Part shown: in pieces, positions 12,286-12,457 of the stretch
Layout of the letters: each line of letters begins with the position of its first letter
Numbering within the stretch: the first letter of the stretch is position 1
NCBI GenBank assembly: GCA_023249405.1
Contig: JAHFCR010000001.1
Location: forward strand, 1 to 40,000
Reading direction: 5' to 3'
DNA: 40,000 bases
From: Peptococcaceae bacterium
GTDB taxonomy: Bacteria > Bacillota > DSM-12270 > Thermacetogeniales > Thermacetogeniaceae
The notes under the pieces: model-generated
Told to the model about the DNA's origin: nothing
What the model saw: only the letters and a program-made list of their open reading frames with translations
Databases searched by the model: none
Program-made: the position numbers and the translations under genes

Positions 12286-12457
12286 ATAAACAAATTCTTG
12301 ATTCAGGTGGGGTATTAACCCCATCTGTCCCACCCAAAGGGTGCCCGGCTTAGCGCCGCTTACCTGTGCCGTTTTCCTTCAGGCCGGGCGTCAGCCCGGA
12401 TACGACGCTCCCGCTTCAAGAAGCGGGAGTCTTAGTGGCGGTTAGCTATCGGATAAA
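12286..12457 (+). repeat. Modular hairpin-rich intergenic element, copy 1 (172 nt), between folB and folK
   Basis: Parts, 5' to 3': leader ataaacaaattcttgat; hairpin caggtggggt-atta-accccatctg; block cccggcttagcgccgcttacctgtgccgttttcc; hairpin ccggg-cgtcag-cccgg followed by atacg; 9-bp hairpin ctcccgctt-caag-aagcgggag; tail tcttagtggcggttagctatcggataaa. These blocks recur at 14868-15132, 29553-29618, 32453-32641 and 2404-2676. Confidence 0.85.

Follow-up and report, generated by a model that had tools for sequence, protein, structure and literature searches.

Two-hairpin intergenic repeats of a Thermacetogeniaceae contig are very probably bcr1-type mobile elements that insert at ATAAA

The first 40,000 nucleotides of contig JAHFCR010000001.1 from a Peptococcaceae bacterium (Thermacetogeniaceae), hereafter called the window, contain a family of hairpin-rich intergenic repeats. 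Five to six copies are present, all on the + strand, and one of them stands on the antisense strand within a folP-folB-folK operon. What are these repeats, and how did they come to lie there? A preliminary description, made from the sequence alone, had proposed a structured non-coding RNA (ncRNA) family, a non-autonomous derivative of a transposon that moves as single-stranded DNA, or orphan guide-RNA scaffolds. Our analysis indicates that the elements are very probably non-autonomous mobile repeats of the bcr1 type, inserting at ATAAA. Sequence comparison places the window family as a distant member of a bcr1 superfamily. The bcr1-type element itself is known; what is new is the breadth of the superfamily beyond the Bacillus cereus group, together with constraints on its mobilisation.

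The repeats bcr1 to bcr3 are the group A repeats of B. cereus, and the work of Okstad (2004), Klevan (2007) and Kristoffersen (2011) on them is summarised in PMC3184786, PMC6542083, PMC6199540 and PMC3446304. In the passages of these papers that deal with it, bcr1 is ~155 bp long, carries 5-bp TTTAT direct repeats, is transcribed and varies in copy number. It is described there as two independent stem-loops with compensatory changes, cruciform-like in shape. The same passages give it as specific to the B. cereus group and without a known transposase, and its movement is called 'site-specific recombination-like' and uninvestigated.

The mobility of the present family was seen in three independent pairs of filled and empty sites, with a single ATAAA at the empty site and ATAAA-element-ATAAA at the filled site. 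The empty site for the second full-length window copy (copy 2) reads GCCGCAATAAA|CTTCAACC in loci L113 and L114. In the window, a 265-bp insert ending in ATAAA (GGAAACTTAC...CATCGGATAAA) stands between the same GCCGCAATAAA and CTTCAACC. In the Sporomusa pair, L058 is filled and L048 is empty. In the pair from the B. cereus group, L122 holds a 155-bp insert and L123 is empty (GGAAAATAAA|CAAAAAAAAGC). Furthermore, L117 and L118 show a 4-nt overlap of folB and folK, and the window has a 228-nt spacer between these genes, in which the first full-length copy (copy 1) lies.

Among 60 independent full-length copies, the pentamer ATAAA was found at 54 left ends and at 47 right ends, and TTTAT at none. 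Outside the pentamer, the flanks showed no conservation beyond a slight T/G preference at position -1. Since ATAAA is never replaced by TTTAT and the flanks are not conserved, the target is a short non-palindromic motif with a fixed orientation relative to the element. The boundaries of the window copies are the flanking ATAAA pentamers. The preliminary description had pointed instead to TTGAT or TTAC as target or cleavage motifs. These lie inside the outer stem of the first hairpin (ATTCTTGA pairs with TCTTAGAAG), 6-8 nt inside the ATAAA boundary, and that assignment was given up.

The copies in the window, and the parts of copy 1, are as follows (HMM, hidden Markov model; E, E-value).

12286..12457, + strand: copy 1, a full-length repeat of 172 nt, very probably of bcr1 type, subfamily ATAAACAAATTCTTGA; nhmmer model positions 1-132, E 1e-17.
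12286..12290, + strand: left ATAAA of copy 1, the target or duplicated pentamer.
12304..12327, + strand: hairpin 1 core of copy 1, CAGGTGGGG-TATTA-ACCCCATCTG, with a G12307.T12324 wobble; helix 1 of the covariation test.
12347..12362, + strand: 5' arm of the hairpin 2 outer stem of copy 1, GGCTTAGCGCCGCTTA, which aligns with canonical GACTTAGCCGCTCTTA.
12363..12406, + strand: internal module of copy 1, 44 nt, within the 5' arm of hairpin 2; CCTGTGCCGTTTTCC, hairpin CCGGG-CGTCAG-CCCGG, ATACGAC.
12408..12429, + strand: hairpin 2 inner stem of copy 1, CTCCCGCTT-CAAG-AAGCGGGAG; helix 5 of the covariation test, with compensatory changes in 4/6 pairs.
12430..12457, + strand: 3' arm of the hairpin 2 outer stem of copy 1, TCTTAGTGGCGGTTAGCT, then the right end ATCGG-ATAAA (right pentamer 12453-12457).
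14863..15132, + strand: copy 2, full-length, 270 nt, subfamily ATAAAGGAAACTTAC, with two nested modules; matched in two HMM pieces, lineage HMM E 8.5e-58.
29553..29618, + strand: copy 3, a short form reduced to hairpin 1, its right end degenerate, between convergent genes; HMM E 6e-13.
32404..32458 (approximate left end), + strand: copy 4a, a decayed short form CTTAGCTTCAGCGGGGG...CCTCCACCAAAGCTAATCGGGGAAA, read by eye against short forms such as L038.
32454..32641, + strand: copy 4b, a full-length but diverged member of the copy-2 subfamily, with a remnant of module 2 carrying a CCAGG/CCTGG hairpin; lineage HMM 32453-32603, E 4e-11.
2404..2676, + strand: copy 0, which keeps CTTGCCTGTGCCATTTT, CCGGATAACGGCG, GAAGAAGCGGGAAC and GGGTCATCGGTTAATA in family order.

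Copies 1-4 were recovered by repeat search, blastn and nhmmer, and a single family on the + strand, as first described, was borne out at these places. Matches on the - strand are only palindromic reflections of the same hairpins. Copy 1 has folK (11756-12268, - strand) on its left and folB (12497-12874, - strand) on its right and is antisense to both; the window folK is 87% identical to folK of one Thermacetogeniaceae metagenome-assembled genome (MAG). Copy 2, with its pentamers at 14863-14867 and 15128-15132, has an HD-domain gene (14237-14761, - strand) on its left and the FTHFS gene (15229-17010, - strand) on its right. The position of both copies beside minus-strand operons had been noted correctly. 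From the left, the letters of copy 1 run ATAAA-CAAATTCTTGA, the hairpin TTCAGGTGGGG-TATTA-ACCCCATCTG, GGCTTAGCGCCGCTTA and the 44-nt insert, followed by CTCCCGCTT-CAAG-AAGCGGGAG and TCTTAGTGGCGGTTAGCT-ATCGG-ATAAA.

Copy 3 has its left pentamer at 29553-29557. Its first 62 nt (29553-29614) equal a copy from a Desulfocucumis MAG (L099 1939-2070) at 60/62 positions. This likeness is far closer than such distant hosts predict, and on sequence grounds it suggests either recent horizontal spread or strong constraint. Copy 4a stands in tandem with copy 4b, and a degenerate pentamer, GGAAA, is common to the two; no HMM matched copy 4a. The local alignment of copy 4b to copy 2 scored 79, against 30 +/- 5 in shuffles. 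Copy 0 had been listed beside the others without distinction. Its local alignment to copy 1 scored 49 against 25.8 +/- 4.4 in shuffles (0/500, z ~5), and its alignment to copy 2 was equalled in 2/500; the reverse-complement control gave no significant alignment. No HMM matched it, however, and it is probably a decayed relic of the family. The chance probability that all window copies point the same way is ~0.03-0.06, and the common orientation is not a family trait.

Side-by-side reading of the copies gave a canonical unit of ~133 nt, with a core of ~128 bp; the elements range from about 125 to 270 nt. The left half of the unit reads ATAAA-gta-GACTTAGC-TTCAGGTGGGG-TTTTA-ACCCCATCTGAA-GGTTAGTC-gccc-TTATCC-agg, and the right half GACTTAGCCGCTC-TTAA-CTCCCACTT-GTAG-AAGATGGGAG-TCTTA-GAGCGGGTTAGTC-atcGG-ATAAA. 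The plan is ATAAA, a long imperfect hairpin 1, the linker TTATCC, a long imperfect hairpin 2 and CGG-ATAAA. Hairpin 1 has a G-rich core, CAGGTGGGG/CCCCAYCTG, and an outer stem, GACTTAGC/GGTTAGTC. Hairpin 2 consists of an outer stem, internal loops with TTAG and an inner stem CTCCC..GGGAG. The recurrence of TTAG was as reported, three times in copy 1 and six times in copy 2. GTAG directly after ATAAA is found in one subfamily only.

In copy 1, the 3' outer arm of hairpin 1 is deleted, and hairpin 2 of the window copies carries nested modules of 44-110 nt, which are lineage-specific. The 44-nt module is missing from L099, the closest canonical copy. Of blocks A to D of the preliminary description, B and C belong in part to this lineage-specific insert and not to the core: the module of copy 1 is the 3' part of block B (cctgtgccgttttcc) plus block C. 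The module seed occurs 37 times, 34 of them inside family copies. Module 2 was also considered as an independent mobile element, and this was rejected because it is nearly confined to family copies.

Further variants are short forms with hairpin 1 only, such as copy 3, perfect palindromes, tandems with one common ATAAA, and copies with extra sequence in hairpin 2. The perfect-palindrome short forms (L106 435-492, L018 1147-1203 and L103 6573-6617) have the structure ATAAA-arm-loop-arm'-TTTAT. In these forms the 3' arm complements the 5' arm exactly and is free of the usual TTAG mismatches, and in sequence they resemble inverted duplications of the left end. Nested in hairpin 2 of L041, L067, L008 and L101 are short units in tandem (GGGGACATTCC.. 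and CCTGACCTCTGAC..). In two relatives of the window genome, the spacer between folB and folK is filled with related CTCTGAC units (L115 5700-5830 and L116 5835-5960). A second type of element combines the same ATAAA ends with a different first hairpin (GGCTTGCGCCGAGCC). It was seen in the right flank of L029, in L073, in L075 at ~7400-7500 and in L116 at 978-1103, in tandem with or nested in canonical copies, with ATAAA in common.

The conservation of the fold was analyzed in an alignment (A1) of 42 distinct full-length copies from other genomes. The RNAalifold structure contains hairpin 1, hairpin 2 in three parts, and a closing helix in which the linker TCC pairs with the 3' GGA. In the stems, 96.2% of the cells were paired. 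Double-sided changes were detected in 12/28 pairs, against 5.1 +/- 1.4 in column shuffles (0/500) and 2-6 in slid controls. This agrees with the covariation that had been read from the window copies, where CCGGG/CCCGG against CCAGG/CCTGG and the C:G against T:A pair in the inner stem of hairpin 2 are present as written. Since the search pattern fixed hairpin 1, the invariance of that hairpin is an effect of ascertainment. The linker TTATCC can pair with GGATAA at the 3' end, and in Clostridium intestinale this pairing shows one compensatory change, TCT/AGA.

The family is not confined to the window genome. A scan of representative genomes with the hairpin-1 pattern found at least 111 loci. The hosts are several species of Sporomusa, Desulfotruncus, Desulfocucumis, Desulfoscipio, C. 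intestinale, a Clostridiaceae MAG, Gracilibacter, and Peptococcaceae and Thermacetogeniaceae MAGs. Sporomusa genomes carry many copies each, on both strands, and near-identical copies are present within one genome. With nhmmer, 274 matches were obtained, 68 of them full length. An overlap of more than 40 nt with a predicted open reading frame (ORF) was seen in only 5/138 copies. Where the flanking genes are co-directional, 34 copies are sense and 33 antisense to them; 13 lie between convergent and 11 between divergent genes. Relative to the local GC skew, taken as a proxy for replication direction, the split was 56:63 (119 copies, loci with |skew| >0.03).

Blastn of the canonical copy was run against plasmids and phages. 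Against plasmids, only two Clostridium tetani plasmids, both toxin plasmids, were matched. On one of these, p12124569 (L129), a full-length copy occupies 3943-4077, ~3.5 kb downstream of tetX. The hairpin 1 core of the C. tetani copy carries a compensated change, GGGG/CCCC to GGAAG/CTTCC. Against phages there was no match, and a scan of viral contigs gave only two; thus, phages are not obvious carriers. A literature search returned no paper that describes such an element in Sporomusa or other Firmicutes as a MITE (a miniature transposable element with inverted repeats), and none with the sequence strings of the element.

As for the relation to bcr1, chromosomal loci of the B. cereus group were collected through a spore-protein query. 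The 155-bp, TTTAT-flanked repeat of this group is multi-copy, and in the plasmid collection 42/43 records with it are Bacillus and one is Pseudalkalibacillus; copies of it lie at L122 16718-16877 and in L124-L128. An HMM built from copies of Negativicutes and Clostridia only matched 6/7 of the B. cereus-group copies, co-linearly and on the right strand, with E 6.5e-5 to 7e-3, and had no other match at E up to 1 in 143 kb. The blocks shared with the B. cereus copies, in the same order, are AGTGAAACTT, CAGxGGGG/CCCCxCTG, TTAG, CTCCC..GGGAGTCTTA and CGGGATAAA. The C. intestinale copy is intermediate in the alignment (ATCAAGTGAAACTTGA against ATAAAGTGAAACTTTAA), and the predicted folds of both groups of copies have the same two-hairpin shape. 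No Rfam family was matched at gathering or E-value thresholds by the window, one Sporomusa copy or the B. cereus copies, and only chance matches far below threshold appeared. The statement that no known family could be recognised therefore holds for Rfam, but the architecture and insertion signature are those of bcr1, and the profile points to homology with the B. cereus-group repeat. The PLSDB record NZ_CP093325.1 (L128) holds at least 40 B. cereus-type copies. It is labelled 'plasmid p1', has 5.5 Mb and 25 annotated features, and is most likely a chromosome.

Genes that could move the element were searched for around the copies. The window genes are housekeeping genes by synteny, apart from ORFs that were examined singly. 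Among the 20 largest ORFs that synteny left without a name there was no transposase, as had been stated, and no recombinase was found in the window either. In ~1 Mb of sequence flanking more than 130 copies, no multi-copy ORF was found; a motif regular expression run over all six-frame ORFs of these flanks gave no IS200-type TnpA signature, no tnpA or tnpB adjoined the copies, and no autonomous element with tnpA or tnpB and the same ends was seen. At 111 loci, no pair of left and right ends enclosed a gene, and the gene-bearing relative that had been hoped for did not appear among them. Outside the syntenic fol-operon loci, the largest cross-locus ORF cluster consists of histidine kinases, the sole cluster checked in this way (Pfam).

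These observations show how the element behaves. It inserts at the non-palindromic ATAAA (TTTAT on the other strand) in a single orientation relative to the motif, so that ATAAA is present on both sides. Each insertion regenerates the target, and therefore copies accumulate in tandem and nest. Lineages add their own hairpin modules inside hairpin 2, and copies decay to relics. For the mechanism we propose that mobilisation would occur in trans, by an enzyme encoded elsewhere. This enzyme would recognise folded DNA, as intrastrand hairpins or a cruciform, and not terminal inverted repeats, since the stems are compensated, no terminal inverted repeat extends through the superfamily and the target is read strand-specifically. 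Its chemistry could be that of a structure-dependent single-strand transposase or recombinase, HUH-like or specific for hairpin sites; we suggest this tentatively and would place it somewhat below an even chance. Any effects of co-transcribed copies at the RNA level would be secondary.

Several points weigh against the bcr1-type reading or narrow it. Within-genome copies are related by descent, and the shuffle statistics for covariation therefore overstate independence. With RNA parameters, the top strand (ATAAA...GGATAAA) is the more stable one in 57/61 copies (mean -7.8 kcal/mol), and with DNA parameters in 59/61 (-3.6 kcal/mol), but about half of this advantage is G+T composition: shuffled top strands are also better by ~4.4 kcal/mol, and the z-scores of the two strands are alike (-9.8 and -9.5). 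The wobble pairs, all G-T on the + strand in the first reading, are 25 G.T against 16 A.C in the stems of the whole family. The + strand as the folding strand is thus supported weakly. The profile match to the B. cereus copies is modest, at 13-20 bits. The B. cereus repeat is called bcr1 by its length, flanks, copy number and host range, not by comparison with a consensus, and could be bcr2 or bcr3. A target duplication, and a single target with an ATAAA end encoded by the element, look alike in sequence, and the variant pentamers of the 60 copies fit both models. Two element-sized indels distinguish L115 from L116, which are 99% identical over 11 kb. Clean insertion at ATAAA was rejected for these indels. 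The 'empty' allele already holds the 3'-terminal 11 nt of the element, and deletions may thus be among them. Finally, beyond the insertion signature we infer the mechanism from sequence, and the mobilising enzyme is putative.

The best surviving alternative, though an unlikely one, is a derivative of IS200/IS605 insertion sequences (IS) comparable to the palindrome-associated transposable elements (PATEs). It would move as single-stranded DNA through a Y1 HUH TnpA acting in trans, with ATAAA/TTTAT as the adjacent motif and an identical motif encoded at the right end. TTTAT is indeed the target or transposon-associated motif (TAM) of ISGst2 (PMC10055086) and of group A IStrons (PMC4227781), which are IS200/IS605 elements of Bacillota. 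Gene-less PATEs are known to be mobilised in trans, and the short, orientation-coupled, non-palindromic target with otherwise unconstrained flanks fits this explanation. Hairpins near both ends, a better-folding strand and B. cereus copies without terminal inverted repeats fit as well. In addition, the pairing of the TTATCC linker, 5' of hairpin 2, with the 3' GGATAA recalls the guide/cleavage-site pairing of IS608. However, from the 2010 work of Ton-Hoang and colleagues, IS200/IS605 insertions are reportedly strongly biased to the lagging-strand template, whereas the present copies show no bias against local GC skew. The better-folding strand of the window copies is the C-rich strand, opposite to what this model expects. 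In IS608 and ISDra2, the hairpin has a guide tetranucleotide at its foot, and the left cleavage site is found ~15-20 nt 5' of this hairpin. Here only 0-3 nt separate the left ATAAA from the base of the extended hairpin 1, which leaves no room for a guide plus spacer, ~19 nt at left ends of the IS608 type. The two hairpins are dissimilar in the B. cereus copies, and neither tnpA or tnpB next to more than 130 copies nor a full-length relative was found. Thus, from the proposal of a non-autonomous transposon derivative, the mobility stands through the filled and empty sites, but the IS200/IS605 link is not supported.

A classical MITE is quite unlikely too. It would be a deletion derivative of an IS with a DDE transposase, recognised as duplex DNA through terminal inverted repeats, and making a 5-bp duplication with a preference for ATAAA. 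The fixed 5-bp direct repeat, single at empty sites, and the random orientation relative to genes and GC skew are as expected of such an element, and bcr1-3 are termed MITE-like in the part of PMC3446304 that treats them. In copies of the Sporomusa type, the end GTAGACTTAGC is an imperfect inverted repeat of the end GGTTAGTCATC (GACTTAGC against GACTAACC), and the motif recurs twice more inside the element. In the B. cereus copies, in contrast, there is no terminal inverted repeat (GTGAAACTTTAA against CCCGCTATTTGC). A non-palindromic pentamer in one orientation is not expected from a symmetric transpososome, a duplex-binding transposase gives no reason for compensated internal stems, and no parent IS with these ends was seen at the loci around the copies.

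The copies might instead be structured ncRNA genes or cis-regulatory RNAs, transcribed from the + strand and kept for an RNA function. The conserved, significantly covarying secondary structure and the better RNA fold of the top strand would agree with this, and in B. cereus about half of the copies of bcr1-bcr18, taken together, are transcribed in untranslated regions or operon spacers according to the relevant part of PMC3446304. It is nevertheless very unlikely. Sense and antisense copies are equally frequent, and window copies 1 and 2 are antisense to their operons. The sites are polymorphic for insertion and carry a target signature, copies are truncated, nested, in tandem or decayed, near-identical copies recur within a genome, and Rfam gave no match. 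The even orientation and the decayed, truncated and nested copies therefore argue against ncRNA genes, and equally against orphan omega-RNA scaffolds. That last idea, guide scaffolds of the omega-RNA type left behind by TnpB or IscB transposons, is extremely improbable: TTTAT is a known TnpB TAM and the sequence is structured and non-coding, but tnpB and iscB were found neither in the window nor next to the copies, no Rfam match was obtained, the strand with TTTAT 5' of the element is the worse-folding one, and ~130 nt with two simple hairpins and the same motif at both ends fit an element made of transposon ends only, not a scaffold plus guide.

We return to the bcr1-type mobile repeat and to what it would imply. 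For about 20 years bcr1 has been treated as a curiosity of the B. cereus group, and relatives elsewhere make the question of what moves it tractable by comparative genomics. The asymmetric, orientation-coupled target, the conserved hairpins and the lack of strand bias constrain the mechanism. It is conceivable, although rather doubtful, that a Bacillota-wide superfamily (Bacilli, Clostridia-type and Negativicutes) is moved by an undescribed mechanism, in which a trans-acting enzyme would join two-hairpin DNA at ATAAA in one orientation, with neither terminal inverted repeats nor the replication-strand bias of IS200/IS605. If true, structure-dependent transposition or recombination of this kind would form a new class. 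Since the distribution is broad, the mobilising enzyme should be discoverable by phylogenetic profiling; one could ask which families of transposases or recombinases track the copy number of the repeat over hundreds of genomes. For annotation, the copies are better masked as mobile repeats than called ncRNA genes or IS ends, and they explain odd operon spacers such as that between folB and folK.

Other features were observed in the window. A pan motif (Rfam RF01749; 37.1 bits, gathering score 36.2) lies at 11620-11716 on the - strand, upstream of a DUF2520/Rossmann gene (10564-11541), panB (9613-10521), panC (8686-9585) and panD (8293-8682), which is its expected context. Three tRNA genes each are located at 10-308 and 23437-23806 on the - strand, the G-rich strand of the window. 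An ORF at 581-1078 (+ strand) adjoins a tRNA cluster and matches only the C-terminal part of the EamA transporter domain. A related ENA contig has a phage-type integrase just upstream, and the region may be the boundary of an integrated island. Tandem DegV-family paralogues are encoded at 23962-24837 and 24951-25889 (- strand), with 72% DNA identity over 300 nt. Two neighbouring ORFs share a 57-nt repeat with 74% identity, at 28338-28394 and 29050-29106 (+ strand); the second ORF has a C-terminal DUF190 domain, and the repeat is probably a paralogous N-terminal membrane domain.

Among known systems, integron attC sites offer an analogy of mechanism only. They are imperfect palindromes of ~60-140 nt, recognised as a folded single strand, with strand asymmetry and a short core at both ends. 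Here ATAAA takes the place of the GTTRRRY core, integrase and cassette array are lacking, and the copies are dispersed singly. BOX of Streptococcus pneumoniae and REP/BIME of proteobacteria are likewise modular, hairpin-forming intergenic repeats with a variable number of modules, but they lack a target duplication signature. REPs are 20-40 nt long, have a GTAG/CGTC head and depend on the RAYT transposase (PMC3733652). The present unit of ~130 nt has two different hairpins, and the REP head is not conserved, with GTAG in one subfamily only. The MITEs Correia/nemis of Neisseria and RUP of S. pneumoniae resemble the family in size, copy number, intergenic position, direct repeats at the ends and a long hairpin if transcribed. 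They have, however, clear terminal inverted repeats that match a parent IS, and a symmetric TA target, whereas the present family has an asymmetric target coupled to orientation, inverted repeats that are weak or lacking, and two separate hairpins.

The PATEs of the Geobacillus stearothermophilus ISGst elements are closer. They are gene-less, carry hairpins, are mobilised in trans and use a T-rich, non-palindromic, orientation-coupled target (TTTAT in ISGst2; PMC10055086). As in the present family, one strand is structurally favoured, the imperfect hairpins are subterminal, terminal inverted repeats are lacking and no protein is encoded. The present family differs in showing no replication-strand bias, in its tight left end, in having the same pentamer at both ends, and in that no tnpA/tnpB relative was found in the ~1 Mb of flanks.

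The closest system is bcr1, as far as the published summaries portray it. Both are small, gene-less intergenic repeats, and TTTAT is the reverse complement of ATAAA, single at empty sites. Both have two compensated stem-loops, a variable copy number, non-conserved positions and no known transposase. The present family has no blastn-level similarity to the B. cereus copies, the loop of its hairpin 2 is ~25 nt shorter, its outer stems contain repeated TTAG loops, and its window copies carry 44-110-nt nested modules. The range published for bcr1 in these summaries is the B. cereus group, and the present family occurs in Thermacetogeniaceae, relatives of Desulfotomaculum, Clostridium and Sporomusa (Negativicutes). 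Because of this wider host range, we class the element with the bcr1 superfamily, as a distant member, and not as bcr1 itself.

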